A stretch of DNA of 64,000 bases, taken from NCBI GenBank assembly GCA_050950145.1, contig JBMNHB010000001.1:53136-117135 (forward strand), in the 5' to 3' direction. The DNA comes from Candidatus Dojkabacteria bacterium. GTDB lineage: Bacteria; Patescibacteriota; Dojkabacteria; SC72. Both the position numbers and the translations under genes were made by a program. This document shows, piece after piece, positions 11,259 to 40,569 of the stretch; position 1 is the first letter of the stretch; the number at the start of each line of letters is the position of its first letter. The notes beneath the pieces are model-generated. The model did not search any database. It was not told where the DNA came from and saw only the letters and a program-made list of their open reading frames with translations.

Positions 11259-12002
11259 TTAAATGCCTCCCTTTTCTTTTCTACTGTTGTCATCTTTATT
11301 TGATTGTGTGTAATATGCTCTTCCTCTAAACAAACATACTGCTTTTACTGAGATATTGTTATCTACTTTCTTAATAACTTCAGATATCTGTTCTAATGTA
11401 CTACCAGTTGTAATAACATCATCTACAATTATTATATCCTTAATATCTTTTAATTTATCAGTATCATCTATGTAAAAGTTACTTCTATGTTTCTCTCTTT
11501 CCTCCTTATCCAATAATGACTGATGGATATCATCTCCCCCTTTTTTCTTTACAATACTATTATCAAACATACTCCCCAGAGTATCAGAAACAACCTTAGC
11601 TAGCTCTTCTGTTTGATTAAATCCTCTCTCTCTTAATCTACTGGTAGATATTGGAACAGGGATTGTAAGAGAATTTTTGTTTTTTTTGTTGAGTACAAAC
11701 TCTTCTAATCTCTCTTTAGCAAATTCAAGTAATGTGTTCTCTGCATCATAGACACTCCCATATTTATACTTTTTCAATATTACAGAACTTAGCTCGTTAT
11801 ATTCCCAAAGAACAATTACACTATCTAATGTAAACTTCTCTTTACATCTCTCATGGGTGATATATTGTGGTGATATTCTTCTACATTTATAACATTCAGG
11901 TAGTGTCTTCTTAAAAAGTTTCTTACACCTAGAACACAAATATTCACCATTCTTAGAACAGATAGTACAAGATTTTGGAAACAGTATATCTAATATATTC
12001 AT
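11259..12002 (-). CDS. comFC: ComF-family phosphoribosyltransferase-like competence protein
   Basis: N-terminal Cys4 zinc-finger (CTICSK...CSRCKK), C-terminal PRTase motif IIVDDVITTGSTL; start taken at MNILDIL, not the longer track ORF. Confidence 0.7.
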   Translation of the reverse strand: MNILDILFPKSCTICSKNGEYLCSRCKKLFKKTLPECYKCRRISPQYITHERCKEKFTLDSVIVLWEYNELSSVILKKYKYGSVYDAENTLLEFAKERLEEFVLNKKNKNSLTIPVPISTSRLRERGFNQTEELAKVVSDTLGSMFDNSIVKKKGGDDIHQSLLDKEEREKHRSNFYIDDTDKLKDIKDIIIVDDVITTGSTLEQISEVIKKVDNNISVKAVCLFRGRAYYTQSNKDDNSRKEKGGI

Positions 12003-12101
12003 ACATATATTATGTATTAGAAATATTAAATATAGATTAATTGATAAAAATTGCACTATACAATATGATAGTAGTCACGAAATAAGAATATTGATATTTT
12101 T

Positions 12102-16502: not shown

Positions 16503-17027
16503 CTAAACGAACCTTACCTCTTGTGCTAGTACTTTTCCAATAATATCTCTACTGTTTCTTCTGTATTTAACAATCTCTAAGTTGCCGTTATCATTAATTA
16601 AAACAGTATCACCAATCTCATACTTACTATTTGGAGAAATATATACTACTCCATTACTTCCATCAACAATATTCATATCAACAGCAAATGTATTAATATC
16701 CATCTGCAATACCCAATCAGGTGCAGGATAGAATAGATATGATTTTGTTTTAAGAAAATCATTATTATCAGGTATTGATGTATAGTAAGGAATTTTGTTA
16801 GTAGAATAGTTATCTACTTGAGATGAAGAATCTCTAAGTAAATCTCTAGGATCAATATTAAGAGCATCTGCTAAATTATTCAATTGCTTAAGTGGAGAAC
16901 TCTCTCCTCTTTCATATCTAGAAATCATCTCCCAAGTCTTACCTATCTTGTCTCCTAATTCCCTCTGTGTTAACTTTTTTCTTTCTCTGTATATTTTAAT
17001 ATTCTCTCCAATATATTTATTGTTCAT
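16503..17027 (-). CDS. LexA-like repressor: XRE-family HTH plus S24 peptidase-like C-terminal domain
   Basis: N-terminal HTH (KLTQRELGDKIGKTWEMISRYERG); C-terminal S24-like beta domain keeps the Lys (EIVKYRR), but the catalytic Ser position aligns to AVDM, a possible non-cleaving variant. Confidence 0.6.
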   Translation of the reverse strand: MNNKYIGENIKIYRERKKLTQRELGDKIGKTWEMISRYERGESSPLKQLNNLADALNIDPRDLLRDSSSQVDNYSTNKIPYYTSIPDNNDFLKTKSYLFYPAPDWVLQMDINTFAVDMNIVDGSNGVVYISPNSKYEIGDTVLINDNGNLEIVKYRRNSRDIIGKVLAQEVRFV

Positions 17028-17042
17028 ATATATAGATTCTAA

Positions 17043-17060
17043 TTACATATTAATGTAGTT
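17043..17060 (+). promoter_or_regulatory. Candidate operator palindrome (TACAT-N4-ATGTA) in the divergent lexA-like/dinD intergenic region
   Basis: ttacatattaatgtag lies 16-33 nt upstream of the lexA-like start. Confidence 0.3.
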
Positions 17061-17332
17061 AGAATAGAAAAGAAGGTCATAGATATGAAATATAATTTCG
17101 TAATTGTAAGAATTTTGTAAGAAATGAAATAGATAATCTGTATATGGAAGCATTAAAAGAATTAGTAAAAGAAATAGATAGAATATATGGGAAAAAGAAG
17201 ATCAATAGAAGAGATTTAGAAAGATTGTTGAAGAAGTGTAGGAAGGTAAGAAAAACTTTATCCCGTTTTTAATCTGGATTTAATAATTTCTTGTTATATA
17301 TCTATATATCCTTAAATTTTTATCTAAAAATT

Positions 17333-18139
17333 ATGAAAGAAAATAACACAATCAAACTATTTCAAAACAAAAAGATACGAGTAGAGTGGAATAGTGAAAA
17401 AGAAGAATGGTTGTTCTCAATTGTAGATATCATAGGTGTTTTAACAGAGAGTCCAAATCCTAGAAATTACTGGAAAGTTTTGAAATTTAGGTTGCAAAAA
17501 GAGAATAGTCAGTTGGTTACAAATTGTAACCAACTGAAATTAAAATCATCTGACGGGAAATATTACAAAACAGATGTAGCGAATACAGAGCAGATTTTAA
17601 GAATCATACAATCAATACCTTCTCCAAAAGCAGAGCCTTTTAAATTATGGTTAGCACGGGTTGGTAAAGAACGAATAGATGAAACAATTGATCCAGAATT
17701 AACGATAGATAGAGCATTAAGAACTTATCAGAAAAAGGGATACAGTAAGGCATGGATAAATCAAAGATTACAATCTATTCAAGTAAGAAAAGAACTTACA
17801 GATGAATGGGAAGAAAGAGGTGTGAAGAGAGGTTTTGAGTTTGGAATCTTAACAGATGAGATAACTAAAGCTTGGTCTGACCTCACAACACGAAAATATA
17901 AAGAATTAAAAGGTTTAACAAAAGAAAACCTTAGAGACAATATGTCTACTATTGAAATAGTTCTGAATATGTTAGCAGAAGCATCAACAACAGAAATTTC
18001 CAAAGAAGTCCAACCAAAGAATTTTGATGAGAATAAAAAAGTAGCAAAGTTAGGAGGAAATGTTGCTGGAAATGCGAGAAAAGAAATAGAGAAGACAACA
18101 AAGAAGTCAATTATTACAAATAGAAAAACTCTTCAATAA
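17333..18139 (+). CDS. dinD: DNA-damage-inducible protein D homolog (Bro-N domain)
   Basis: N-terminal Bro-N-like segment (WLFSIVDIIGVL...NPRNYWK); C-terminal region collinear with E. coli DinD (..LKKNQKILDHMGSTELAANLF.. ~ ..LTKENLRDNMSTIEIVLNML..). Confidence 0.7.
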   Translation: MKENNTIKLFQNKKIRVEWNSEKEEWLFSIVDIIGVLTESPNPRNYWKVLKFRLQKENSQLVTNCNQLKLKSSDGKYYKTDVANTEQILRIIQSIPSPKAEPFKLWLARVGKERIDETIDPELTIDRALRTYQKKGYSKAWINQRLQSIQVRKELTDEWEERGVKRGFEFGILTDEITKAWSDLTTRKYKELKGLTKENLRDNMSTIEIVLNMLAEASTTEISKEVQPKNFDENKKVAKLGGNVAGNARKEIEKTTKKSIITNRKTLQ

Positions 18140-22541: not shown

Positions 22542-24137
22542 ATGAAAATAGTTTTTAGAAAAGATCTAAATATTGCCACCATTCGTTCTGATTCATTATG
22601 GAACAAGATGGTTGTACATACTCTTTTACAAAACTGTTCTACAAAACAACCATCAATAAATGCATATTTAGGTGCTAGGTATAGTAGGTCTGCTGATTCA
22701 ATAGTAGATATTGCATCAGAGATTATAAATAGTGGTAAAGATGCCTCTGAAAGGTTAGAAAAGATATTTGCTGGATATGGGCATAAGTCTGTAGGGGATA
22801 TGGCAGAGTTATTTGTTTGTATAGAGAATGTTCCAATTATTACAGGTATGAAGTTCTTCTATATGAATCCTGTTATTGCAGGTCAAGAGCGATCTACTAG
22901 ATATCAAAATTTTTCTGATCCTAATTTTGTTAAAATTCCTGCAGAGGTATGTAGTAATCAATCAGTAAGAAAAGAATATGAAAAGATAATATTTAAGCAG
23001 CTTGCAGATTACAAGAGACTTCTTAAGATTACGCGAGAAGAATTATCTAAGATTTTCAAAATTAACGAAGAGAGTCCTCAGGAAGTCTCTGCTTTAAAGG
23101 CAAGGAGTTTTGATGTTGCTAGATATCTTCTTCCTGTGGGATTGAGTACAAGTGATGCTATGGTGATGTCTGCTCGTTGTTGGTCTGAATTTATTGGTTT
23201 TCTCGCAGGGAGTGATAGTGTTGTTGATAATGAAGTAGCTGATTTAGTGTTGAATTTGTTGGGAGATTCTAATATTGATACTAAGGGATATATTCGGGAG
23301 GCAGATAATCTAATTCGTCACACAGAGTCAAATAGTAGTAGAGGTAATTCTACAAAAGAAGTTTTGGAGTATATTGGTAAGACATTAAGTAGGGAACAGG
23401 TTGATTCTATACCTGAGAGTGAAAGTGAGTCTGTTTCTGTAAGTTACTCCCCTGATTTTACAGAATCTTTATTTTCTCATTATGAAGCTTTATTAAATCC
23501 CTTAGGTTCTGTTGATGAGTATGAATTTGATGAAGAAGATCAAGAGAATATTAGTGAGATACTTTTTGAGAATCATAATCATCATAATACAATTGGGAAT
23601 ATTGGACAGAGTGGTGCAGTTAAAATAGAGGGTTTTGCTACATTAGGAACGTTAAAGGATTTGAATAGGCATAGGAGTTTGGAGAGGTTTATACCTTTAT
23701 TACATGATGAGGTAGATATGGATCAGGAGTTGGATAGAAGAAATGATGAATGTTTTTATCTATGTAATTATCTTGATATTCCAAGCTTAAAGAATTTAAA
23801 GTCTGAGTACAAGAAAGCCTTGTCAGAAACATATGAGATGATAAAGGAGTGGAGAAGTAATGCTAAGGAATATCTTTCTGAGGAAGTATGTGATGAGTTC
23901 ACTAAATATCTACTACCACATGCTCATACAACTAAGTATATGATGTATGGTTCTTTTGATGATTTACAATATGTTGTTAATTTAAGAATAAGGAATGGGG
24001 GACATATAGCATATAGAGTGGTGGTACATGAGTGGTTAAAGAAGTTAGGAATACAAGACCCTATATGGAGAGGTTTACAGAAGAGGCTCAAAGCACCAAA
24101 AGTTGATGATAAATTTGAATTTGTAGATAGGTCATAA
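22542..24137 (+). CDS. thyX: Flavin-dependent thymidylate synthase ThyX, tandem-duplicated (two ThyX-like repeats, 531 aa)
   Basis: Repeat 1 has ERSTRY (like ELSGRY) and ARYLLPVGL...SARCW, but no RHR. Repeat 2 has LNRHRS and TKYLLPHAH...VVNLRIRNGGH (like NLRADSHAQ). Located between glyA and dcd. Confidence 0.6.
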   Translation: MKIVFRKDLNIATIRSDSLWNKMVVHTLLQNCSTKQPSINAYLGARYSRSADSIVDIASEIINSGKDASERLEKIFAGYGHKSVGDMAELFVCIENVPIITGMKFFYMNPVIAGQERSTRYQNFSDPNFVKIPAEVCSNQSVRKEYEKIIFKQLADYKRLLKITREELSKIFKINEESPQEVSALKARSFDVARYLLPVGLSTSDAMVMSARCWSEFIGFLAGSDSVVDNEVADLVLNLLGDSNIDTKGYIREADNLIRHTESNSSRGNSTKEVLEYIGKTLSREQVDSIPESESESVSVSYSPDFTESLFSHYEALLNPLGSVDEYEFDEEDQENISEILFENHNHHNTIGNIGQSGAVKIEGFATLGTLKDLNRHRSLERFIPLLHDEVDMDQELDRRNDECFYLCNYLDIPSLKNLKSEYKKALSETYEMIKEWRSNAKEYLSEEVCDEFTKYLLPHAHTTKYMMYGSFDDLQYVVNLRIRNGGHIAYRVVVHEWLKKLGIQDPIWRGLQKRLKAPKVDDKFEFVDRS

Positions 24138-24734: not shown

Positions 24735-26066
24735 CTATATTCCTGTTGGTGGTGTCATGTTTTCGTTTGTTGTAGGTTGTTCAGGTTCTATGTTGTTCTC
24801 TACACTAGTAGGAATATTATTAATCTCCATATTTACAGCATTTTGTAGATCATTGTCCATTGGAGATGTTGTATCTGCTTGAGTAACTACAGATTCTATT
24901 GGTTGTTCAGTTGATCCTAAATTGGGAGATGCTAGATTATCTGTTTCTACTTCAAGAGGTGAAGTTGATCCTACATCAGGTAAACCTCCTTCAGTCACAT
25001 TTGCAGAGTAGTTACCACTAAGTGACCCATTTATTATGGAAGATGTATTAGCATTTGCTTCTTGTACTTCTTGTATAGGTTGTTGTGGAAGCGTTACCTG
25101 TTCCTCTGAAGGTATTGTATTTGGTGTGTCTGTAGGAGTACTTGTAACCATACTAGGATTTTCACTTTTTAAGAGTTCTTCTAAGTCTGCTTGCTCATTT
25201 GGTGTAGAAGAAGCAGGTGATGTCTCAGGAACTGTTGGTACCTGTTCTGTAGTTTGTTCAGGAGCTTGTGTTGGCTGATTTATCATCTCCGCTAATGTTG
25301 GTTTTGACTGGGCAATATTATCTTGCATAGTTTCATTCTGTAGATTCTGTGGAATGTTCTTAAAGTCAACAGGTTGTTGAGTTGGTTGTGGAGTAGGCTG
25401 AGTCGGTTGTGGAGGCATAACAGATGCAGGAACATCAGTTAGCACGACATTATCCTTTTTCATTGTGACCGACAGTACAATAATGATAATGAAAAATATA
25501 CCAGCAACTCCTAGTAATATATATGGTAGATAAGCCATAATTTTATTATCTTTTTGAGCCGTTGTTTCTGACATTGTAGTAGTGATCTCCTGTGTGGTTA
25601 GTTGTGTTGGAGAGGTTTCTGTATCATCATTAGTAGTAGAATCTTTTATATTATCTCCGACATTTGTTACCGAATCTATTGTTAAATCACCTATCTGAGA
25701 CTCTTCTTGCATTATTGTAAATTTATAATCATCGGATGATGAGGTAAATAGAATAGTAGCTATTAATCCTTGTACAGGTTGATTAGAAGGTAATGTACAT
25801 ACTATCTCTGAAGAACTATCACTTGGCACGTAAGAAAAAGTTGAGCAAGATATGTCTGACTCTACAATATCTGTAATAGTTACATTTTCGGAGTGTTGTA
25901 TTATGATTTTTACATTCTCTGTAGATTCAGATTTTGTATCAATTGAAACAGCAATAGATTTTTTAGTAGAACTAGAAGTTTCTTGTAGTTTAAGTTCTGC
26001 AGCATAACTCAAATTAACGAAGGTAAATAAAAAAAGTATAGAAAAGAAAATAGCGATATTTTTCAT
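24735..26066 (-). CDS. Secreted/membrane protein with signal peptide, central TM helix and Thr/Pro/Gln-rich low-complexity regions
   Basis: N-terminal signal (..VNLSYAAE), TM (ILLGVAGIFFIIIIVLSV), PTQPTPQPTQQP repeats. Confidence 0.4.
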   Translation of the reverse strand: MKNIAIFFSILFLFTFVNLSYAAELKLQETSSSTKKSIAVSIDTKSESTENVKIIIQHSENVTITDIVESDISCSTFSYVPSDSSSEIVCTLPSNQPVQGLIATILFTSSSDDYKFTIMQEESQIGDLTIDSVTNVGDNIKDSTTNDDTETSPTQLTTQEITTTMSETTAQKDNKIMAYLPYILLGVAGIFFIIIIVLSVTMKKDNVVLTDVPASVMPPQPTQPTPQPTQQPVDFKNIPQNLQNETMQDNIAQSKPTLAEMINQPTQAPEQTTEQVPTVPETSPASSTPNEQADLEELLKSENPSMVTSTPTDTPNTIPSEEQVTLPQQPIQEVQEANANTSSIINGSLSGNYSANVTEGGLPDVGSTSPLEVETDNLASPNLGSTEQPIESVVTQADTTSPMDNDLQNAVNMEINNIPTSVENNIEPEQPTTNENMTPPTGI

Positions 26067-26164: not shown

Positions 26165-27349
26165 ATGGAATATCCCATGAGTAACAAACTGCCTACCTCT
26201 GGAGTTGATGAAAGTATAGATGAAGTTCTTGCATTAGAGAACAAACTTCTATCTTCGTCTGCTCCTCATGACTTAAAGGAAGAATCTAAGCTCTCTATAG
26301 ATAGGCTCAAAAGGATGATTCGTATGGGTGGGTATAGTAGTGAATTTGAAACTGTAAGTAAGTATATAGATTGGATTGTAAGAGTACCTTGGAACTCATT
26401 TTCTGAAGATGTTTTAGATATTGTAAGTGCAAAAAAAATCATGGATAGTACACATTATGGTATGGAATCTATTAAAAACCTCATCCTTGATTATTTAGCA
26501 TCTATGCAATTGAAAAAAGAAAATTATCAAAAGAGAGATGTTATTCCTACCCAGTTTCAAGTAGGAGTAGAAGAAAATATTCAGAATAGACCAGTTGTTA
26601 AAGTTGAGAAACAGAAAATCTATACACCAGTATTTCTTTTTGTTGGTTTGCAAGGTGTAGGTAAAACATCTATAGCGAGGTCTATTGCACAATCAATGAA
26701 TAGGAAGTTTGCAAGAATCTCTCTTGGTGCTATTGGTGATGTAAGAACTTTAAGGGGAACCCCAAGGTATTCAATTGATGGTGAACCAGGACAGATAGTA
26801 AAATCTCTGATTAGATGTGGTACTATGAACCCTGTTATTCTTTTGGACGAAATTGAGAAATCTAGTGCTAATACAGGTCTTCTTAATGATGTGATGGCAA
26901 CCCTTTTGGAGATTTTAGACCCAGAGCAAAATACATCTTTCATAGATCATTATATTGATTATCCAATTGATTTATCTAATGTAATGTTTATTTGTACCGC
27001 AAATAATTTAGGAGGGCTTTCTGCTGCTTTGTTAGATAGGGTAGAAGTAATTAGGTTTACCAGTTATTCAGATGAGGAGAAGAAAGTAATTGCGAAGCAG
27101 TATATTCTTCCTGAGGTATTAGAAGAATATAATTTAACATCAAATGAAATTCAAATTTCTGATGATATATGGTTATCAGTTATCAGACCTGTAGGTTTTG
27201 ATGCTGGTATTAGACAGTTAGAAAGAAATATTGCAACCATGATAAGGAGTGCAGCGAGAAAAATTGTAGAAGGTAGTCCAACTCCGATAAGTATCAATAA
27301 TGAGAATCTTTCAGAATTTCTTACTGTTGATCAAGGTCCTCTTAGTTAG
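26165..27349 (+). CDS. Lon-type AAA+ ATPase module without LON N-domain or S16 protease domain
   Basis: Collinear with the Lon AAA+ region: YIDWIVRVPWN, HYGMESIKNLILDYLA, GLQGVGKTS (Walker A; Lon has GPPGVGKTS), ILLDEIEK (Walker B), FICTANN, LLDRVEVIRFTSYSDEEK. ORF stops ~30 aa after the AAA+ lid. Confidence 0.8.
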   Translation: MEYPMSNKLPTSGVDESIDEVLALENKLLSSSAPHDLKEESKLSIDRLKRMIRMGGYSSEFETVSKYIDWIVRVPWNSFSEDVLDIVSAKKIMDSTHYGMESIKNLILDYLASMQLKKENYQKRDVIPTQFQVGVEENIQNRPVVKVEKQKIYTPVFLFVGLQGVGKTSIARSIAQSMNRKFARISLGAIGDVRTLRGTPRYSIDGEPGQIVKSLIRCGTMNPVILLDEIEKSSANTGLLNDVMATLLEILDPEQNTSFIDHYIDYPIDLSNVMFICTANNLGGLSAALLDRVEVIRFTSYSDEEKKVIAKQYILPEVLEEYNLTSNEIQISDDIWLSVIRPVGFDAGIRQLERNIATMIRSAARKIVEGSPTPISINNENLSEFLTVDQGPLS

Positions 27350-27354
27350 TAGTT

Positions 27355-27621
27355 TTATACACCTTTAAAAGGATTTTTTAGTTGTAATGCAGATATAGCT
27401 CTTGATATTTGTGGGTTTTTTACTGATTTTGCTATATTAGATCTGTAATTACTTTTCTCTTCTGCTTTAAGTAATTGTTCTAAATCCGAACTTTTGGCTT
27501 CTTCTGTTAATGATTTTGTATCAACAGCTTGTGTTACAAGATATAGTTCTTCTTGTATTTTTTCAGGTTCTTTTTTAGTTGTTTTTTTATTAAAGAAACT
27601 AAACATTTTTATCTTCTTCAT
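27355..27621 (-). CDS. Small hypothetical protein, last gene of the VirB4 operon
   Basis: 88-aa ORF overlapping the virB4 3' end by 23 nt. Confidence 0.25.
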   Translation of the reverse strand: MKKIKMFSFFNKKTTKKEPEKIQEELYLVTQAVDTKSLTEEAKSSDLEQLLKAEEKSNYRSNIAKSVKNPQISRAISALQLKNPFKGV

Positions 27622-30010
27622 TAGGGTAACTTTCTGTATAGCCCTGTGGTGTTAAATGTTTCTTACCTTTTTGTATATCTTTCCTAGAACTCACAACTTG
27701 TCCTGTTAGGGTCTTTTGACTCAACTCATCTATGAATGTCTTTTGACTTTTATATTTATCTGGATTTATCACCTTTTCTTGTTCAACTAACCTTTTTTCT
27801 AACTCTTCTTGATATTTTATTCTTTCATCCAAGAGCATCTCTCTCTGTTTTTCTTTAGCCTCTATAGCTTCCATGATAATTTCGCTTTCTCTTGTACTAC
27901 TATCTCGTATAGGTTGTTGTACTGCTGGAGGATCATATATTTGAGCTAATTCTTGAACTGTTCTTGTGTCTGTTATACCTTCTTTTTCTTTGAGTCTTTC
28001 TAAATCTTTAGGGTCAGATGTAATAATTTCATGCTCAGCAACACTTGATAATACTTGAATACCAACATGGTTTTGTCCTGCAAAAAATAATCCTTGTCCT
28101 TTATCACAGTTTAATAGGTAATTTCTTTCTCCATCTGATAAGTTGAAAACTTTTTGTAGTAGTTCAACAGCAGAAGGGCTTTGTTTCATTAGCATTTGTA
28201 TTGAAGAGTTAGAGATAATTGCTTTTCCCATTTCATTTCCTAAGAAATCTGCAACATCTTGTGTAATTGTTGATAACCCTAGATAATATTTTCTAGCTCT
28301 TTTAGCAATAGTGTACATAAATTTAGCTGAATCCTCCGATTGCATCATATACCAAGCTTCATCAACAATTAATAATCTTCTTTTTCTATCTTTTCTAATT
28401 CTTGTCCAGATAAAGTCCAACATTAGGTACATAGCTAGTGGTTTTAGTTCATCCTGTAAATCTCTGATACTGAATACTGTGAATGGATTATTAATCTCAA
28501 AGTTACTTGCTTCATTAAATACTCCTGCACCACTTCCTATAATGTATTTTTCAAGCCTTCTTGCTAAACCATGTGCTTCTGTTTCAGCCATACCTTTAAG
28601 GACTTTGTATAAATCTTCAAGTAAAGGAGGTGTTTTGGTCTGAGTTTTAACATCAAATGTTATACCTTTTTCTTTGTATGTCAGAGATAAAGCTCTATCT
28701 AATATAGAATCTTCAATATTTGTTATTCCTTCAAATAGTACTTTGAAAAACCCATGAAGTGATAATAGTTTCATTCTTAACTCATCATCTCCTTCTTCTG
28801 TTACTCCTGAAAGTTCAAAAGGATTCATTTTGTGTCCCTTATCTTGTGAGAAAGAGATATAAGCTCCATTAACAGCTTTTGCTAAATTCTCATACTCTCT
28901 TTCTGGGTCAATTATGATAATCTCGGTTCCTAGCATTAAACTTCTAATAGCTTCAAGTTTAACGAAGTAACTTTTTCCTGCACCAGATTTTGCAAATATT
29001 ACTGCATTTGCATTTTCTAATTCAAACCTATCAAATACAATCAAACTCTTGTTGTGCATATTTAATCCATACATAATCCCATGATCCATTGTTAATTCCG
29101 AAGTAACAAATGGAAAAGTAGTAGCTAATGAAGTAGTATCCATATTTCTAGTTATGAAGAGGTTGTCTATTCCTAATGGTTGTGTACTTATGAATGCTTG
29201 TTCTTGTTGTAAGGTTGCAGGTTTAGCTGTTACATTCATTGCTGCAAATGTAGATATGACATTTCTTGATATCTTTTCCAATTCTTCTTTGTTGTTAGCA
29301 TAGAGGGTTACATACATGGAGAAATGGAAGAATTTCTCTGTTCCTTCTGCAATAGAGTCTTGTAACATTTGTGCGTCTGAGAGAGCAACTTTAAGTGATG
29401 GATCTATGACTTTTCTATCCTCCATCTGAGTGTAGAGTGTAGCTTCCATCTCACCTATCTTCTTTTTTAATTTTTCTAGAATGGTTTTAGAATCTACTGG
29501 ATAGTAGAATGTACTAATTCTTAATGAGTGCTCAAAGTTGATAATAGGAGATAACCAGTTAGGTCCTACGAATCTGGGATACCCACTTACGAATAGTGTT
29601 CTAAAGTAATATCCTCCCATCTGCAAATGAGTGAAATCAATTTCCATATCAATAGGGGCGAGTAAGTCCTGCATTGACATCTTTGTATCAACACCAATAC
29701 TACTATCAATACTTTGTACTTCTTCTTTAGGTACTTCTTGTACCTTATCTTCTTCTTTCTTTTCCTTACTTTTTTTGTTTTTTCCAGTGATTATGTCTAA
29801 TAGCTGAAATATAGGGTTAACCTTTTTCTTCTTCTCTTCATTTGTGTCTACAAACTCCTCTATTGGAACAAATGGTTTATCCATCTTATCACTAGGTTCT
29901 ACCTTTATCTGTTCTTTAAAGGTAGTATACTTCTCCTGTGCTGTTTGTAGCTTTTTTTGTCTTTCCATCATCATATTGCTAGTTTTACTTGTAATATTGT
30001 TGTTTTCCAT
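27599..30010 (-). CDS. virB4: Type IV secretion/conjugation ATPase, VirB4/TrbE/CagE family (Gram-positive TcpF/PrgJ-like)
   Basis: YFRTLFVSGYPRFV...WL pattern; Walker A AKSGAGKSY; NPF; Walker B LLIVDEAWYMM; RKYYLGLSTITQDVADF. K/E-rich ~110 aa N-terminal linker and ~130 aa coiled-coil C-terminal extension. Confidence 0.85.
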   Translation of the reverse strand: MENNNITSKTSNMMMERQKKLQTAQEKYTTFKEQIKVEPSDKMDKPFVPIEEFVDTNEEKKKKVNPIFQLLDIITGKNKKSKEKKEEDKVQEVPKEEVQSIDSSIGVDTKMSMQDLLAPIDMEIDFTHLQMGGYYFRTLFVSGYPRFVGPNWLSPIINFEHSLRISTFYYPVDSKTILEKLKKKIGEMEATLYTQMEDRKVIDPSLKVALSDAQMLQDSIAEGTEKFFHFSMYVTLYANNKEELEKISRNVISTFAAMNVTAKPATLQQEQAFISTQPLGIDNLFITRNMDTTSLATTFPFVTSELTMDHGIMYGLNMHNKSLIVFDRFELENANAVIFAKSGAGKSYFVKLEAIRSLMLGTEIIIIDPEREYENLAKAVNGAYISFSQDKGHKMNPFELSGVTEEGDDELRMKLLSLHGFFKVLFEGITNIEDSILDRALSLTYKEKGITFDVKTQTKTPPLLEDLYKVLKGMAETEAHGLARRLEKYIIGSGAGVFNEASNFEINNPFTVFSIRDLQDELKPLAMYLMLDFIWTRIRKDRKRRLLIVDEAWYMMQSEDSAKFMYTIAKRARKYYLGLSTITQDVADFLGNEMGKAIISNSSIQMLMKQSPSAVELLQKVFNLSDGERNYLLNCDKGQGLFFAGQNHVGIQVLSSVAEHEIITSDPKDLERLKEKEGITDTRTVQELAQIYDPPAVQQPIRDSSTRESEIIMEAIEAKEKQREMLLDERIKYQEELEKRLVEQEKVINPDKYKSQKTFIDELSQKTLTGQVVSSRKDIQKGKKHLTPQGYTESYPNEEDKNV

Positions 30011-30645
30011 TAATCTTCTTCAGGGTTATATGATGTATACAGTTCTGTTATTAACTCTTTTGTAGTTAATTGATGTCCGAAAAGTCCCATCCTTCCTAGT
30101 TGTTTTATTATATGATCCCTTTTAGGGTATAGGAATATTTTAGCTTTTTCTATTAATTGGTCCATTTTTATATTCCTATTTTGTTCTTCCTCTTCTTTGC
30201 TTTTCTTCTTTTTCAATATGGATGTTTCCGGTATTATAGATCCAGTATGATAGGGAACTATGATAAAAAAACTTTTATCTAGAACATCATTCTGTACGAT
30301 TAAATTTTTCACAAATGTTATGTATATGTTTAATTGTTTTTTTAATCCCTCACTCATAGCTTGTTGTTCTTGTGATTGTAGATAGGTAATGTAGTTGGTA
30401 ATATCTATCCTTTTTGTTCTAATCATTATCTGGATACGAAAATTCAAGGAATTCAGTAATCCTGCAAAAGCAAGTATCTTATTATCTTGTTCATACTCTG
30501 CAAGTAAATCAAAATTAATAGCAGATGTTTGTATTACCATCGCAACACTTCCATTTTTATTTATCACCAAGTCATCACGAATATCTCGTACCGCTAGATG
30601 ATCTTGTGTTGATGCTGTTGCTCTTGCTCTTGCATTTCTATCCAT
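30010..30645 (-). CDS. VirB4 N-terminal domain encoded as a separate, translationally coupled ORF
   Basis: IRDDLVINKNGSVAMVIQTSAINFDLLAEYEQDNKILAFAGLLNSL...RIQI matches the conserved N-terminal domain of Gram-positive VirB4 ATPases; stop/start overlap TAATG with virB4. Confidence 0.55.
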   Translation of the reverse strand: MDRNARARATASTQDHLAVRDIRDDLVINKNGSVAMVIQTSAINFDLLAEYEQDNKILAFAGLLNSLNFRIQIMIRTKRIDITNYITYLQSQEQQAMSEGLKKQLNIYITFVKNLIVQNDVLDKSFFIIVPYHTGSIIPETSILKKKKSKEEEEQNRNIKMDQLIEKAKIFLYPKRDHIIKQLGRMGLFGHQLTTKELITELYTSYNPEED

Positions 30646-30646
30646 T

Positions 30647-31477
30647 TTAAAGTGTAGTTATCTTAATAGGTAAGTTCTTTTCATTTCCACTTAATAATAT
30701 ATCTACCTTAGGGAACATGTATTGATTATTATCAAATTCAATAGAATATTTTCCTGGTTTCCATTTCTGATTTGTTAAAAAGTATCCATTACTCCCCGTT
30801 TTATTAGCATACAAAAGATTCCCATTTTCATCTTTTAATAGAGTTACAATATTAGGAATTGGTTTGAAGTCTTTTGTACTAATCCAAATATTAATATTTC
30901 CAGGTAGATTGTCAAAACCTTTGGCATTAAATTGATATTGAGAAATATTCTCTTCATTTATTAAAATATATTCAGGATTTACACTCTTAGGAGCAGAACT
31001 CTCAAGACTTTCTAATTCCTCATCTATTTTCTTTTGTACTTCGGATATGGGTTGTTCTGTCTTTTTATCTGTTAATTGAACTCCAATAATTTTCTTCTTT
31101 TTTTCTTTAGTATCCTTTGCTATTAATTTACCATCTTCAGATGGTTTTAAATGTGGCTTTACTCTGTTTTTTTCATCCTCTTTACTAATCCATGCTCTCT
31201 GTGTAGGACTAGTTATTGCCCTTATATAGTTCTGTATAAATTTGTCAGCAGGTTGGTCATTTATTGGTACAAGAGCTAGGAAGATACCAGCTAAAGATGA
31301 GAGGATGAATACAGGGATACCAATTATAGGTGGAATTGTATTACCAATGGTTAGATAGAGAACTAAGCCACCCAAACCAACACCTAGTGCTAAATATGCA
31401 AATTCTTTGAGAGTGAACTTAGTAAAAAGTTTAAACTCTACATCTAATACATTTTGAGGTATTGCATGTTGTTTCAT
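30647..31477 (-). CDS. VirB3-like two-TM membrane protein with C-terminal beta-rich extracytoplasmic domain
   Basis: Two adjacent N-terminal TM helices (LALGVGLGGLVLYLTIG / IIGIPVFILSSLAGIFLALVP) immediately upstream of the virB4 ORFs. Confidence 0.4.
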   Translation of the reverse strand: MKQHAIPQNVLDVEFKLFTKFTLKEFAYLALGVGLGGLVLYLTIGNTIPPIIGIPVFILSSLAGIFLALVPINDQPADKFIQNYIRAITSPTQRAWISKEDEKNRVKPHLKPSEDGKLIAKDTKEKKKKIIGVQLTDKKTEQPISEVQKKIDEELESLESSAPKSVNPEYILINEENISQYQFNAKGFDNLPGNINIWISTKDFKPIPNIVTLLKDENGNLLYANKTGSNGYFLTNQKWKPGKYSIEFDNNQYMFPKVDILLSGNEKNLPIKITTL

Positions 31478-31550
31478 TGGCAGTAATTATATACTACATA
31501 TTACCAGAATATGAAAGAAATTATTAGTATTAGTATATAGGAGTGGGGAG

Positions 31551-35644: not shown

Positions 35645-36553
35645 TCAACTAGGTCTGTTTGATGTTCTGTATCTTTTCTCCAGCTTCTTCTGTTTTTGTT
35701 GTAATACTCTTTCGCTTCCTCTTACTAAATTCTTTTTCTCTACTGAAACATATTGCATATATGTTTTAAACAAAAAAACCCATTCATTAATATTTAATTC
35801 AGAAGGTTTTTTATTCCTAATATGCAAATTCTTTTCAATAATCTTCTGTTGTTTATATGAAAATACTTTATCAAATGCTTGTAATATAGTTGGTTTCCAT
35901 TGATTATATCCATATATTACAAAATCTCTGTATTCTTGTATAAGTTTTTCTTCCATTAAAGGCTTTTCTCTCTTCTTGAATTCTGTTAATACAGTATCAA
36001 CATTAGGTATAGGCTTGTATTCTCTCCTATCTATGTATTTTAATATATCCATTTTATAAAAAGGTTGAAGAAGTATTGAAACTTGAGTGTTCTCACCTGT
36101 AGAAGAACCAATATATCGTTTAGCAGCCAAATCCTGCATGATTAGATATGTGTTTTGTGGAGGATTAGTGGATAGTAGTAATTTATCAATTATTCTACTT
36201 GTAAATTCAAAGGGTATGTTGGAGAAAACTTTGTATGGATATTTAGGGGTTTCAAACCTAAGAAAATCTTCCTCTATTATTTCAACATTTGAAGAGGTTG
36301 AAAATTTCTTTTTTAAATTTTGTGCAAGAGTATGATCTAGTTCTATTGCAATTACATTATCTGCTTTTTGAGAAAGTTCCTCAGTTATTATTCCTTTACC
36401 AGGTCCTATCTCTAAAACAGTATCATCTTTATTGATATCAGTTATTGAAACTAGGGACTCTACAAACTTAGAATCATGTAAGAAGTTTTGTGAATGCCAA
36501 AGATTTTCTATTTTGGAAAGGTTTATAAATATATTACTATGCTTAATTTCTCG
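35645..36553 (-). CDS. rsmA: 16S rRNA (adenine1518/1519-N6)-dimethyltransferase KsgA/RsmA; no canonical start codon found in frame
   Basis: Open frame from 36553 with HSQNFL, VLEIGPGKGIITEEL (SAM site), NIPFEFTS, F.P.PNVDT motifs. First ATG/GTG/TTG is at 36139, downstream of the SAM-binding motif. Confidence 0.75.
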   Translation of the reverse strand, partial: REIKHSNIFINLSKIENLWHSQNFLHDSKFVESLVSITDINKDDTVLEIGPGKGIITEELSQKADNVIAIELDHTLAQNLKKKFSTSSNVEIIEEDFLRFETPKYPYKVFSNIPFEFTSRIIDKLLLSTNPPQNTYLIMQDLAAKRYIGSSTGENTQVSILLQPFYKMDILKYIDRREYKPIPNVDTVLTEFKKREKPLMEEKLIQEYRDFVIYGYNQWKPTILQAFDKVFSYKQQKIIEKNLHIRNKKPSELNINEWVFLFKTYMQYVSVEKKNLVRGSERVLQQKQKKLEKRYRTSNRPS

Positions 36554-37050
36554 TTAAAAAGGATATCGCTCTGACTCTCAGTGGATAGATAGATTGTTTT
36601 CCTTTCTCCTGGTTTTAGTTGTATCTTACTAGTATCTGTTAGGTTATAACTATCCTTATCAATTTTTAGAGATAGTGAAGACTTTGTAACACCATCAGTA
36701 TATCCATAGAAAGAAACGGTACTAGTAGTAGTTCCGATATTCTTAATATTTATTATTGGTTTAGAATATATCTTTTTCCCATCTCTCTTCACGATATCTG
36801 TACTATACATGTATTCTGTCTCACTCTGTTTCTCTAATACCTCGTTCTGAAAGATATTATGTCTACCACCTACCTTTTCTATTACAATATTTTGTGTAGA
36901 ATCTGTAACACCTAACACATCAGGTCTTTTTAATTCCTGTGTAATTGGAGAGAGATTAATGACAGTAAGGGTAGGTATTATGAAAAGTCCTAATAGTGCA
37001 ACTATTGCTAATGGTTCAAATATTTGTGGTAGTAAATTTTGTTTTGCCAT
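36523..37050 (-). CDS. Hypothetical membrane-anchored protein
   Basis: N-terminal TM helix, Ser/Thr-rich beta-like body. Confidence 0.3.
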   Translation of the reverse strand: MAKQNLLPQIFEPLAIVALLGLFIIPTLTVINLSPITQELKRPDVLGVTDSTQNIVIEKVGGRHNIFQNEVLEKQSETEYMYSTDIVKRDGKKIYSKPIINIKNIGTTTSTVSFYGYTDGVTKSSLSLKIDKDSYNLTDTSKIQLKPGERKTIYLSTESQSDILFNEKLSIVIYL

Positions 37051-37052
37051 AT

Positions 37053-37613
37053 TTAGTAGAGTTCTTTCTCTCTTGGATATATCTTATCAATTTCTATCTC
37101 ATATGTCTTTATAGTACCCCAAATTGAAAAGATTGCCAATATTCCAGCTAAAATTCCAATCCATGGATAGTTAATACCTTGAATTGTTTGTGCGATAACG
37201 ATAAGTGAGGCAACCAGTAGAAATGAACACCAAATGAAGATAAGTAAGAAGGAAGTATCATCTTTTGTAATCCAATTCATAATATTTAATTTAGTAATCT
37301 TTACAATAGTTCTTGGATTTTGAAATGTTGATTGATATATTGATGTCTTTATTATGAAATAGATAGTAGGAACTGCGAGAACAATAATCATGAATAGGTT
37401 AGAGATAGAGTTAACCAAAATGGTTGTGCTACTATCTGTATAGTAAAGTTGAATTGAAAAGATTCCTTGTATCTGATTGTCAATAAAGAAGTCCAGCTTA
37501 TATACAATATTTGCAATGATTATTCCAAAAAGTTTTCCTGCAATCATTAAGACAGCAGGCCATACCGAAATTTTAAGAATTCTTCTTAGCAGTTTTGACA
37601 TTATCTTGGGCAA
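37053..37613 (-). CDS. Hypothetical polytopic membrane protein
   Basis: 4-5 predicted TM helices. Confidence 0.3.
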   Translation of the reverse strand: MPKIMSKLLRRILKISVWPAVLMIAGKLFGIIIANIVYKLDFFIDNQIQGIFSIQLYYTDSSTTILVNSISNLFMIIVLAVPTIYFIIKTSIYQSTFQNPRTIVKITKLNIMNWITKDDTSFLLIFIWCSFLLVASLIVIAQTIQGINYPWIGILAGILAIFSIWGTIKTYEIEIDKIYPREKELY

Positions 37614-37869
37614 GTTTGTTTAAATTTTTGGTAAGTTTTGATTTTAATCTATCAGCCTTACCTTTTTTGATAACATTCTTTTTAGCTGCTTTATCTAAGA
37701 TCTTGTAAACATTTTTTATATTCTTTTTACTCTCTTCTAGATTTCCACTCTCTACTAGCTTAGCTTGTTTTTTTGTAGCTTTCTTTACTCTATTTCTAAG
37801 CCTATCGTTTATTTTCTCTTTTCTTTTATTTTTTCTTAGTTCTTTAATAGATGTTTTTAAATTTGGCAT
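37573..37869 (-). CDS. rpsT: 30S ribosomal protein S20
   Basis: Basic helical 98-aa protein (KTSIKELRKNKRKEKINDRLRNRVKKA). Confidence 0.85.
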   Translation of the reverse strand: MPNLKTSIKELRKNKRKEKINDRLRNRVKKATKKQAKLVESGNLEESKKNIKNVYKILDKAAKKNVIKKGKADRLKSKLTKNLNKLAQDNVKTAKKNS

Positions 37870-37960
37870 TTCTGTTATGTTATAGAATTATTGTTATTCA
37901 AGGTATTATATCTGTATTCTTTTGTTTTGTAAACATTTACTTTTGTGGTATTCTTTTAAT

Positions 37961-38389
37961 ATGGAGAAGAGTAGGAAATTTAAGATAGTTCTTAGTGTTT
38001 TAGTCGTTGTATTCCTCTTTGGTTTTGCAACTATGTATATGATTCTTAATGCTTCTTCAGAAGAAAGTGTTCTGGGAGTTCAGAGTAATCAGGAAAGTAG
38101 TAGTAACATTTCTATGGGTATTCCTTACATTTTGTCTAGAGCTCCGTTAACTATTACAGCTGGAGAGTTGTATGAGTATGTCCCAAGACTTGTTGATATT
38201 GATACTGATGTTTCTGATCTATCACTAGAACTTGTAGATGCTCCAGATTGGTTGTATTTAGAAGATGGTATTGTTCTTGGTGTCGCTCCTGAAGTACCTG
38301 ACACTTTTTCATTTGTTTTAAGGGTTTCTGATGGGTATAATTCATCACAAGAGAAAATATATATTTTAGTAGAGGAGAAAGATGAATAA
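37961..38389 (+). CDS. Membrane-anchored protein with putative Ig-like (He_PIG/cadherin-like) domain
   Basis: TM helix then YEYVPRLVDIDTDVSDLSLELVDAPDWLYLEDGIVLGVAPEVPDTFSFVLRVSDG. Confidence 0.4.
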   Translation: MEKSRKFKIVLSVLVVVFLFGFATMYMILNASSEESVLGVQSNQESSSNISMGIPYILSRAPLTITAGELYEYVPRLVDIDTDVSDLSLELVDAPDWLYLEDGIVLGVAPEVPDTFSFVLRVSDGYNSSQEKIYILVEEKDE

Positions 38390-38789
38390 AAAGTTGTTTA
38401 CGGTAATAGTCGTTTTGACAGTTGTGATGGTTTCTGTTTCTGTGTTTTTACTGCTTAAAAAGAATGTTGTTAGTTTTGATTCTTTATTTGTATCACAGAG
38501 CGATTGTACTCCGTATAATCTTTTTGTAACAAAGGGAGAGAACGAGTTTAGTGTAAAAATTGTTTGGGAAACAAAAGGCAAATGTTTAGGATTTGTTCAG
38601 TATGGTACAAACAGAAATAGTTTGGATAGGGTTGGTATAGATTTGATCTACGGATATAGGAGCCAAGAACATGAAGTTGTTTTAGAGAAACTGTTAACTA
38701 AAGAGAGATATTATTTCTTGATAAATTCTGATAGCACTGGTTTTGGAAATAATGGAAGACCTTTAGAGTTTACAATTGAGAATCTTTAA
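38382..38789 (+). CDS. Membrane-anchored FN3-like (purple-acid-phosphatase N-terminal-like) domain protein
   Basis: TM helix then FSVKIVWETKGKCLGFVQYGTN; paralogous to the ORF at 62816. Confidence 0.4.
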   Translation: MNKKLFTVIVVLTVVMVSVSVFLLLKKNVVSFDSLFVSQSDCTPYNLFVTKGENEFSVKIVWETKGKCLGFVQYGTNRNSLDRVGIDLIYGYRSQEHEVVLEKLLTKERYYFLINSDSTGFGNNGRPLEFTIENL

Positions 38790-38793
38790 CAGA

Positions 38794-40569
38794 TTACTTC
38801 TTCATTTTTTTAATAATTATTTCCTCAAAATACTTTTTAGGATTAAAGATTTTCCATGAAGTCATCTCTGCTTCTTTATATGGGGTTGAAGTAACTATCT
38901 TCTGTATTACTATTTGTCCAAAAGGTTTTGTGTATATATACCAACCTAATGTTAGTATGAATATACCTGTTGCTATTTGTACGATTATATTGTCAAAGAT
39001 TCCAGTCTCCGGTACTTTGACTGGTTGTTCAGTAGGATGACAGCTTTGTTCAACATTAATAATAGATTGAGTTCTGAGTGTTGATGGATTTGTAGGTACT
39101 TGTGCTGGTTCCATTACAACTTCATTTTGATTCTCTCCCGTAAGTGCATTTTCTCCTGCTTTCGCTTGGAATACTAATGTTAATGATTGTCCAGTACTAA
39201 TAGACCAACCTTTGGTTGTAGACCATATCAATTCGGTGGTTTGTCCAATTATATTTGTTTTAAGATATGTATTACCAGCAATAGATACATTGTTAATCTT
39301 TGATGATCTTGGGACATATACAAAACCTAATGGTAGTTTATTTTTGATAGATAATATACTTTGTGAGTTTGTAGCATTATTTGTAATATTAACAGTAAAT
39401 ATGACAGTATTATTTGGTTCTACTCTCTCTACACATGTCAAATTTGTTGTTGTAGTTATTAAGAAGTTTGATTGTAGAGGTTCTTCCTGTGTTGGTTTTT
39501 GAGTTACTGGTGTTTCTTGTTTGGGAGTCTCAGTTTTCTTAGTTGTATCATCAAAGATAATGTCACTTGAGGCACTTCCTACTAATGTATCTGCCTTAAA
39601 AATTTCTGCTTTAATGTTTAAATTTCCGATATGTCCATCTAATTGTGTAAAGCTAACTCCTTGTGTAAAGTTTTCAGTATTGTACAACTCTTGTTCTATC
39701 ATTGAAAATTCACCTTTATCTGTACTAAAAGTAAATCCTTTTTTCATGTCTATACTTGCAAATTTATCGTTATCAAATGAGAACTTGATACTTATATCAT
39801 CAGTATTAGTAATGTTTGCTATTCTTAAAATAGCTTGAGATATTTTTGTAGTTGTTTCTGTGTTCCTTCTAGATAGTATTAGTCCAGTAACACTTGATTG
39901 TCCCTCCTGTTTTATTTCAAATAGACGTTTACAAAGAGGAGAGTTAATCTCGTCACCAGTTTCCCCATCAGCAGTAGCTACAATATCTATAGAAGTTGTA
40001 GTGAAAGTAGTTAGAACTTTCTTTATAGTTAAACCATCATCGGATATTGTGTCTGGTTCTACAATATTATTATTAATTTTAAATTTAGGGTTAGAGTATT
40101 TTTTATCAAACTTAGCTTCTATTGTTAGTTCTTCATCATTCTCTATATTTCCCGTAACTATCTTGCCATTTTTATCCTTTACAGTCATTTCTGAGCATCT
40201 AGTATCTTGAACGTTTTGTAGTGAACATGAGAGGAATAGTTCTTGTTTAGTAGTACTGTTTATTGTATTCATAGCTAAATCACTTACTAAACATGAACTT
40301 TGACACGGAGTACTTCCTTTTGTAGTGACCTCTTTAAAAAGGAAACCTTTTCTTGGATCTGCACACTCTGTTGTGTGTGCAGGATCTATATAGTAACAGA
40401 TACAGGTTTTATCCTCACTTTCTACTGTCGGTGTGCTACTAGGTTTAATCATGTAAAAGTAGATAGCTATACCTATCAATATTAATCCTAAAATACCAGC
40501 AATTACTAGTAATATATTAACAATCTTGTTTGATTGTTTTTTTGTTGTAACTCTTTGTACCTCTTTCAT
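38794..40569 (-). CDS. Large surface protein with N-terminal TM anchor and VPETG motif followed by a hydrophobic segment
   Basis: N-terminal TM; Thr-rich beta domains; ...QPVKVPETGIFDNIIVQIATGIFILTLGWYIYTKP. Confidence 0.45.
   Translation of the reverse strand: MKEVQRVTTKKQSNKIVNILLVIAGILGLILIGIAIYFYMIKPSSTPTVESEDKTCICYYIDPAHTTECADPRKGFLFKEVTTKGSTPCQSSCLVSDLAMNTINSTTKQELFLSCSLQNVQDTRCSEMTVKDKNGKIVTGNIENDEELTIEAKFDKKYSNPKFKINNNIVEPDTISDDGLTIKKVLTTFTTTSIDIVATADGETGDEINSPLCKRLFEIKQEGQSSVTGLILSRRNTETTTKISQAILRIANITNTDDISIKFSFDNDKFASIDMKKGFTFSTDKGEFSMIEQELYNTENFTQGVSFTQLDGHIGNLNIKAEIFKADTLVGSASSDIIFDDTTKKTETPKQETPVTQKPTQEEPLQSNFLITTTTNLTCVERVEPNNTVIFTVNITNNATNSQSILSIKNKLPLGFVYVPRSSKINNVSIAGNTYLKTNIIGQTTELIWSTTKGWSISTGQSLTLVFQAKAGENALTGENQNEVVMEPAQVPTNPSTLRTQSIINVEQSCHPTEQPVKVPETGIFDNIIVQIATGIFILTLGWYIYTKPFGQIVIQKIVTSTPYKEAEMTSWKIFNPKKYFEEIIIKKMKK

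Follow-up and report, generated by a model that had tools for sequence, protein, structure and literature searches.

A 64-kb stretch of contig JBMNHB010000001.1 of a Candidatus Dojkabacteria bacterium (WS6, Patescibacteria; in the following the window), which corresponds to approximately 9% of the 748,838-bp chromosome, carries a four-gene operon encoding a PrgI/VirB3-like membrane protein, a TrsD-like protein, a VirB4 ATPase, and a small hydrophilic protein. This operon very probably constitutes the cytoplasmic-membrane energizing core of a Patescibacteria-type type IV secretion system (T4SS), related to the MPF-FATA systems, on the Dojkabacteria chromosome. Inheritance of the locus is vertical and its constraint strong, as befits a core locus and not a mobile element. 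An initial annotation, made from the DNA letters alone, had predicted four open reading frames (ORFs) on the minus strand, and their coordinates and sizes (276, 211, 803, and 88 amino acids (aa)) proved to be exact. The features of the operon are the following:

30647-31477, minus strand: PrgI/VirB3-like membrane protein, 276 aa (PF12666 above the cut-off, AlphaFold2 (AF2) model)
30010-30645, minus strand: TrsD-like protein, 211 aa (NCBIfam, hhalign)
27599-30010, minus strand: VirB4 ATPase, TrsE-like, 803 aa (NF045971 above the cut-off)
27355-27621, minus strand: small hydrophilic protein, 88 aa, or likelier 83 aa at 27355-27606 (conserved ORF)
31486-31515, minus strand: promoter-like site TTCATA-18 nt-TATAAT (consensus scan, 10/12 matches)

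The 803-aa protein was assigned to VirB4 by the profile search that the initial annotation had proposed as a check. With NF045971, the model of the VirB4-like CD1110 family and the curated family with the highest score for this protein, it reached 402.7 bits at a curated cut-off of 325. An identical protein carries the same CD1110-family VirB4-like name at NCBI, where PrgI has also already been named. Residues 330-664 match the solved C-terminal domain of VirB4 (4AG5) with an E-value of 6e-49. The intact VirB4 core that had been claimed is borne out by the presence of Walker A (GAGKS, 343), NPF (396), Walker B (DEAW, 550), and RARKYY...TITQD (571-585), and all of these motifs are invariant in 14 homologs. 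This core is flanked by two tails. The N-terminal tail of about 110 aa is lineage-specific, of low complexity, and rich in lysine and glutamate (21 K and 15 E in residues 1-110), as had been noted initially. The C-terminal tail (residues ~665-803, about 140 aa) is charged and ends in the conserved sequence GQV..SR..IQKG..HLTPQG..ESYP. Identity to VirB4 homologs from plasmids does not exceed 37.5%, with alignments confined to residues ~110-697; for the copy on plasmid p71 of Bacillus mycoides it is 28.5%.

The match of the 803-aa protein to NF045971 spans profile positions 181-734 of 752. Profile positions 1-180 are not contained in this polypeptide, which thus has an incomplete N-domain. The segment appears to be supplied by the TrsD-like ORF located upstream, as in the TrsD/TrsE pair of pGO1-type systems. 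In the initial annotation, the 211-aa protein had been described as a detached N-domain of VirB4; its correspondence to the N-terminal part is upheld by the comparisons below, whereas its TrsD identity had gone unrecognized. With the NCBIfam model NF041427 (TrsD/TraD), the protein scored 29.5 bits (E-value 6e-7), while the TrsD of p71 itself reached only 67 bits (E-value 2e-18). A further match was found to profile positions 102-233 of NF045975 (VirB4_plasma), a model of the full-length VirB4 of mycoplasma integrative conjugative elements (E-value 9e-6), and a weak precomputed label assigns the protein to PF26593 (TraC-like). When the Dojkabacteria family of this protein was aligned with p71 TrsD using hhalign, residues 10-207 were matched over 176 columns with a probability of 89.6% and an E-value of 1.9e-6. 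No match was obtained by hhalign to one unsplit VirB4 from Brevibacillus; as the profile was shallow (effective number of sequences 1.6) and the template a single sequence, this result does not count against homology. Sequence searches against the PDB returned nothing meaningful for the 211-aa protein. Taken from these scores, the protein appears to be a remote TrsD homolog and not an equivalog. At NCBI, it is still labeled "hypothetical".

The relationship between the two proteins was further analyzed with an in-silico fusion of the 211-aa protein and residues 107-803 of VirB4. This fusion gave one continuous alignment on the CD1110 profile (positions 20-734) and was also continuous on VirB4_plasma (102-892) and TIGR00929 (20-727), with a gain of 27 bits for NF045975 and one of 8 bits for TIGR00929. 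In addition, the ATPase begins at position 181 of the CD1110 profile in the window and at position 183 in TrsE of p71, which indicates the same split point. With good support from sequence and weak support from structure, the 211-aa protein would thus correspond, as a gene product of its own, to the first ~180 profile positions of a full-length VirB4. At the same level of support, the TrsD/VirB4 split would be an inherited MPF-FATA trait of the pGO1 type and not one invented within the candidate phyla radiation (CPR).

PrgI is the Gram-positive counterpart of VirB3. The 276-aa protein matches the Pfam family PrgI (PF12666) over residues 6-94 with 38 bits at a cut-off of 27. According to the AF2 model and a hydropathy scan, its two transmembrane (TM) helices form a hairpin (residues 23-44 and 50-69), and residues 170-276 are modeled as a beta-sandwich with a predicted local distance difference test score (pLDDT) of 75-90. 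This agrees with the initial description of a VirB3-like protein with two TM helices and an extra C-terminal domain. The N-terminal PrgI domain with its hairpin is followed by a basic linker that is conserved (KP.VKP.EDGKLI...KKKIIG), by an acidic spacer that varies, and by the beta-sandwich, and the full length of the protein is kept across the Dojkabacteria. A Foldseek search of the PDB with the beta-sandwich retrieved CnaB2 (8bdw), a carboxypeptidase regulatory domain, and transthyretin with E-values of about 1e-4 and a probability of 1.0. At the sequence level, the C-terminal region gave a weak SdrD_B-like match, and a sequence search of the PDB with the 276-aa protein yielded nothing meaningful. 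The beta-sandwich is predicted to be cytoplasmic because the protein has two TM helices and a VirB4-binding segment after helix 2. PrgI proteins with a C-terminal beta-sandwich are widespread, with 837 representative clusters at an E-value of 1e-10 or lower. Most of these are 270-690 aa long and show two matched stretches, the linkers can reach several hundred residues, and all eight representatives inspected end in a similar domain.

The last gene of the operon overlaps the 3' end of virB4. While this final ORF had initially been given as 88 aa, translation probably starts at Met6, resulting in a protein of 83 aa, which is also the length given by gene callers. Its presence is confirmed by the related loci described below: in 72 of 80 loci, a counterpart of 54-104 aa that aligns with the window ORF starts between -46 and +38 nt from the end of virB4. 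The aligned proteins share a YLVT..VD motif and an invariant NPF[K/R]G at the extreme C-terminus. No Pfam or NCBIfam family matched the small protein. Judged by this conservation, the ORF is a real gene.

The genes of the operon are tightly packed. One nucleotide (nt) separates the stop codon of the 276-aa ORF from the ATG of the 211-aa ORF, and at the junction of the 211-aa and 803-aa ORFs (TAATG) the last base of the stop codon is the first base of the ATG. The four genes are translationally coupled. Upstream of prgI, there is a divergent intergenic region of 266 bp, in which the promoter-like site is located 8 nt before the prgI ATG. Since such sites are no more common in the window than in shuffled sequence (15 found, 22.7 expected), the putative prgI promoter serves as a pointer only. 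Terminator-like sites were likewise not enriched in the window compared to shuffled sequence.

The conservation of the locus was analyzed with one genome per species, and the scan yielded 350 stretches, the best 80 of which are the basis of the following counts. Because the scan employed lineage-specific peptide patterns, only Dojkabacteria-type loci were returned; for the synteny in other CPR classes, the literature was used. Among the best 80 of the 350 stretches, essentially all of which derive from Dojkabacteria-type metagenome-assembled genomes, VirB4 is 60-86% identical to the window protein. Gene order is near-invariant. It starts with holA, the genes of four small envelope proteins, S20, lepA, recF, and a divergent nucleotidyltransferase (NTase) gene, followed by the operon in the order PrgI-TrsD-VirB4-small ORF, a convergent gene for a Lon-type AAA+ protein, the gene for a 443-aa surface protein, and then dcd, thyX, glyA, folD, and an ABC ATPase. 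None of the 80 loci has a fuller T4SS at the position of the operon, which is the outcome of a synteny comparison that had also been proposed initially. Median identities to the window proteins are 75% for LepA, 72% for GlyA, 71% for VirB4, 71% for TrsD (over 76 species loci), 64% for the Lon-type AAA+ protein, 56% for RecF, 55% for the small ORF, and 52% for PrgI. VirB4 and TrsD are thus as constrained as core genes of translation and metabolism, given their medians of 71% compared to those of LepA and GlyA.

This conservation bears directly on the initial suggestion that the operon is a decayed integrative element, that is, the decaying remnant of an integrative conjugative element or of a plasmid-derived T4SS. 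The closest non-CPR relatives of the ATPase are indeed VirB4 proteins of conjugative plasmids from the CD1110 family, partner genes are lacking nearby, and an rve-type integrase/insertion sequence (IS) is located 21 kb away (6325-7227). However, the same operon with the same flanks occurs in 80 species and nowhere in a fuller version, VirB4 and TrsD belong to the best-conserved proteins of the region, the catalytic motifs are all intact, and no plasmid copy of VirB4 is more than 37.5% identical. Moreover, neither a compositional anomaly nor a tRNA or att-like context was found: the G+C content of the window is 29-37% with an unremarkable base composition, the window contains no tRNA genes and no Rfam families, and there is no relaxase or element-border integrase near the operon. 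Because of the fixed housekeeping synteny, the conservation at the level of core genes, a composition without anomaly, and missing element borders, decay of an integrative element is practically ruled out, and the initial suggestion has to be abandoned. The features that characterize an integrative conjugative element or a conjugative plasmid (relaxase, coupling protein, border integrase, and patchy distribution) were not found at the locus.

The operon is an instance of an arrangement that has already been published for the Patescibacteria and is ordinary for this phylum. Quinonero-Coronel et al. 2025 (PMC12102498) searched 3,035 Patescibacteria genomes and detected VirB4 in 2,417 of them, and almost all of these proteins form one clade nested in MPF-FATA. 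The system is described there as widespread and chromosomal, with TrsD and PrgI usually adjoining virB4 (880 of 1,649 PrgI/VirB3 proteins do so) and with other parts often dispersed or too diverged for detection. VirB3 is summarized in the same source as the membrane anchor of VirB4. Dojkabacteria are named among the lineages with the system in the preprint version, and Dojkabacteria genomes are included in the authors' table (PMC12102498). Furthermore, a 2026 preprint reports pilus-like tubes at the CPR-host interface and a monophyletic VirB4 of CPR bacteria. The window locus shows the features of this clade, namely a CPR host, a chromosomal location, TrsD and PrgI beside virB4, and no relaxase nearby. 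It does not represent a new kind of system: the arrangement was published in 2025, and the VirB4-like protein and PrgI are already annotated by NCBI.

Searches for further T4SS components were conducted within the window, and the absences reported here apply to these 64 kb. The Pfam scan comprised all 54 non-nested ORFs of at least 98 aa and the 88-aa ORF of the operon, while NCBIfam was applied to the operon and to seven unassigned or flanking ORFs. No VirD4/type IV coupling protein (T4CP), relaxase, VirB6, VirB8, VirB1/hydrolase, or pilin was recognized in the 64 kb by these scans, and a tblastn search of the window with all proteins of the T4SS region of a Brevibacillus plasmid matched only virB4. 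These results corroborate the initial statement that VirD4, relaxase, VirB6, VirB8, and hydrolase are not visible in the window. VirB2-like pilins were not found in the window either, neither among small ORFs with hydrophobic segments nor by tblastn with two pilins of the related locus L081.

The neighboring 443-aa protein (24735-26066, minus strand) was considered as a TrbL/VirB6 candidate. Its match (E-value 0.005, 17 bits at a cut-off of 25.9) was regarded as spurious, and the candidate was rejected, since a signal peptide, a single TM helix, and a long P/T/Q-rich tail do not make up the polytopic topology of VirB6. NCBIfam gave no match for it. It is an envelope protein that also contains a domain of about 150 aa, and it is fast-evolving (median identity 29%) while its position is kept.

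L081 represents a distant relative, with 60% identity between its VirB4 and that of the window. It carries two tandem genes of the PF18895 family (T4SS_pilin) at 61-399 and 408-794, both on the minus strand, with E-values of 6e-7 and 7e-9 and at a distance of about 6.5 kb upstream of PrgI. No PF18895 counterpart was found in the other 79 loci, whose flanks extended up to 10 kb on each side, nor in the window. As these PF18895 genes lie near PrgI, one distant relative supports the idea that pilins belong to the system of this lineage.

These results raise the question of whether the remaining parts of the system are encoded elsewhere or do not exist. In the latter case, which would correspond to the minimal translocation apparatus considered initially, only PrgI, TrsD, VirB4, and the small protein would have been kept in the genome, and they would work without canonical VirB6, pilins, and coupling protein. 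They might then cooperate with type IV pili, ComEC, or Sec, or the ATPase might be docked to the membrane in a non-secretory role. In agreement with such a genome-wide orphan, no other T4SS gene was found in the window or within 10 kb in 79 of the 80 related loci, and only 480 VirB6 proteins are reported across the 3,035 CPR genomes (PMC12102498). Precedents exist for VirB4-type ATPases that act with other systems, such as Ced and the T4SS variants treated in PMC12857230. However, only 9% of the chromosome was covered by the search, and L081 has pilin genes near the trio. The same published text ascribes the non-detection of VirB6 to divergence and reports VirB2-like pilins in 1,948 assemblies, which are near virB4 in only 1,135 and often far from it (PMC12102498). 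A genome-wide orphan is thus unlikely. That the four-gene set of Dojkabacteria is the whole system, with no VirB6, pilin, or coupling protein in the genome, and has been repurposed outside classical secretion, for example for the uptake of host nucleic acids and possibly together with another envelope apparatus, is decidedly unlikely.

Alternatively, the operon could be part of a working conjugation system with genes for relaxase, coupling protein, and channel elsewhere on the chromosome. This would be compatible with the MPF-FATA ancestry and with the T4CP homologs, which are described as common in CPR genomes and mostly distant from virB4 (PMC12102498). In contrast, relaxases are reported there in only 103 of the 3,035 CPR genomes and are rarely linked to virB4, and the locus in question is fixed class-wide in chromosomal housekeeping synteny, which fits a cellular and not a mobile function. 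Conjugation is therefore highly improbable.

For this energizing core of a Patescibacteria-type T4SS, the most likely role is one in the host-dependent lifestyle and not in conjugation, as neither a relaxase nor a coupling protein is encoded nearby. This role could consist in the uptake of host macromolecules or in the delivery of effectors. The mechanism proposed for it draws on established knowledge of T4SSs, namely the R388 structures and other studied systems. By analogy, TrsD and the 803-aa protein would reconstitute a full VirB4, to which the latter would contribute the rest of the N-domain and the RecA-like ATPase domain. The reconstituted VirB4 would oligomerize and, on the cytoplasmic side of the membrane, use PrgI as its docking site. 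ATP use by VirB4 would then assemble and drive the translocon, of which VirB2-like pili with genes in other parts of the genome may be a component. For Ca. Southlakia epibionticum, the T4SS gene cluster has been reported as essential for growth on its host in two reviews (PMC12857230; PMC11665869), the first of which credits this result to Wang et al. 2023. The role of the Southlakia T4SS is called "completely unknown" in these reviews.

Several points weigh against the assignment of the operon to a Patescibacteria-type T4SS. The TrsD score of 29.5 bits is far below the curated cut-off of NF041427, which is 200 bits. The fusion of TrsD and VirB4 gains no score on the CD1110 model. The structure model of TrsD is of moderate confidence (pLDDT 63.8), and taken alone, none of its matches to VirB4 reaches significance. 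For a membership of the ATPase in the Patescibacteria clade, the evidence is indirect and consists of identities (at most 37.5% to plasmids compared to 60-86% among Dojkabacteria). Furthermore, no channel, pilin, VirB8, hydrolase, or coupling protein was found in the 64 kb or within 10 kb in most relatives, so that the complete machine is inferred and not seen.

The T4SS of the Patescibacteria is the first T4SS reported to be essential for the survival of its bearer. To the published picture, the present analysis adds a class-wide fixed synteny with conservation at the level of core translation genes, which settles the question of a decayed element, and it traces the TrsD/VirB4 split to the pGO1-type architecture. 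Three leads emerge, namely the C-terminal beta-sandwich of PrgI, the conserved C-terminal tail of VirB4, and the conserved small NPF[K/R]G protein. No mention of the VirB4 tails, the beta-sandwich, or the small protein was found in the portions consulted of the published accounts of Patescibacteria T4SSs.

In its gene content, the window looks like other CPR chromosomes and includes rpoC, S12, S7, dnaK, groEL, murJ, folD, glyA, thyX, dcd, recF, lepA, S20, holA, alaS, a sortase gene, nusA, infB, the RuBisCO large chain, and pnp. The flanks named initially (lepA, recF, the NTase-fold gene, and the Lon-type AAA+ gene) were confirmed by the Pfam scan. The Lon-type AAA+ protein (26165-27349, plus strand, 394 aa) had been taken for a fragment. 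It covers positions 252-570 of the 795 positions of the Lon profile and lacks both the N-domain and the protease domain. In 71 related loci, its counterparts show a conservation of 57-82% and run convergently to the virB4 operon. Contrary to the initial view, it is a class-wide conserved stand-alone gene. ThyX (22542-24137, plus strand) has 531 aa, about twice the usual length, contains two Thy1 stretches, and is conserved in most related loci, which suggests a tandem-fused flavin-dependent thymidylate synthase.

On the other side of the operon, a KsgA/Erm-like rRNA adenine dimethylase gene (35645-36529, minus strand) is present only in the window and in its two closest relatives (L006 and L007). 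It was listed as an ORF of 164 aa, which matches the profile in its C-terminal half only. No stop codon interrupts the frame for about 130 codons further upstream, where a KsgA-like N-terminus is encoded with no ATG, GTG, or TTG, so that the gene probably has its full length and a non-canonical start. Between S20 and holA (36523-40569) lies a conserved cluster for small envelope proteins, which encodes a 186-aa protein with four TM helices, an N-anchored protein of 175 aa, two Ig/FN3-like proteins of 155 and 135 aa that are likewise N-anchored, and a DUF11-repeat protein of 591 aa with TM helices at both ends. Also in keeping with a Patescibacteria genome are the RuBisCO large-chain homolog (55057-56481, plus strand) and a phosphoribosyltransferase that is ComFC-like and carries a double zinc ribbon (11259-12056, minus strand). 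A Fic/DOC protein (3549-4589, plus strand), the rve-type integrase/IS (6325-7227, plus strand), and a helix-turn-helix regulator beside a Bro-N domain protein (16503-18139) are small mobile or phage-like insertions located far from the T4SS operon.

Compared to named systems, the operon resembles the pGO1/pSK41-type MPF-FATA systems (TrsC-TrsD-TrsE) in the order of a small membrane protein, TrsD, and a short VirB4/TrsE. The operon on p71 of B. mycoides (locus L084) encodes a 106-aa protein, a 224-aa TrsD, and a 605-aa TrsE, followed by VirD4, TrbL/VirB6, lysozyme, and a MOBQ relaxase. The VirB4 profile is split at 183 there and at 181 here, and profile comparison matches the two TrsD proteins almost from end to end. 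In contrast, the last four plasmid proteins have no counterpart in the window, and the plasmid TrsE lacks the long tails. In the CD1110/CTn2-type system on a Brevibacillus borstelensis plasmid (locus L083), the PrgI gene is likewise found upstream of virB4, directly so in the plasmid and separated from it by one gene (trsD) in the window. Unlike in the window, the plasmid VirB4 is one polypeptide of 804 aa that includes the N-terminal segment, with its first ~229 residues lacking a BLAST-level match in the window, and VirD4 and an NlpC/P60 hydrolase are encoded adjacent to it.

The archaeal Ced system (CedB) and the Helicobacter ComB system are similar only in proposed function, that is, a VirB4-type ATPase with membrane partners serving uptake with no relaxase. 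Their precedent for DNA import has been invoked for the CPR system in the literature (PMC12102498; PMC11665869). At the sequence level, the CedB model scored 59 bits at a cut-off of 700, and no CedA-like or ComB-like partner was recognized in the window. Among the T4SSs of the Patescibacteria clade, the Saccharimonadia locus differs by VirB6, VirB1-like hydrolases, and an array of VirB2-like pilins near virB4, none of which occur in the 64 kb analyzed here. The window shares with this clade the CPR host, the chromosomal location, and the adjacent genes for VirB3/PrgI, TrsD, and VirB4 with no relaxase or coupling protein beside them. As in the other members of the clade, these genes are set among genes of replication and translation, represented here by recF, lepA, the rRNA dimethylase gene, and S20.

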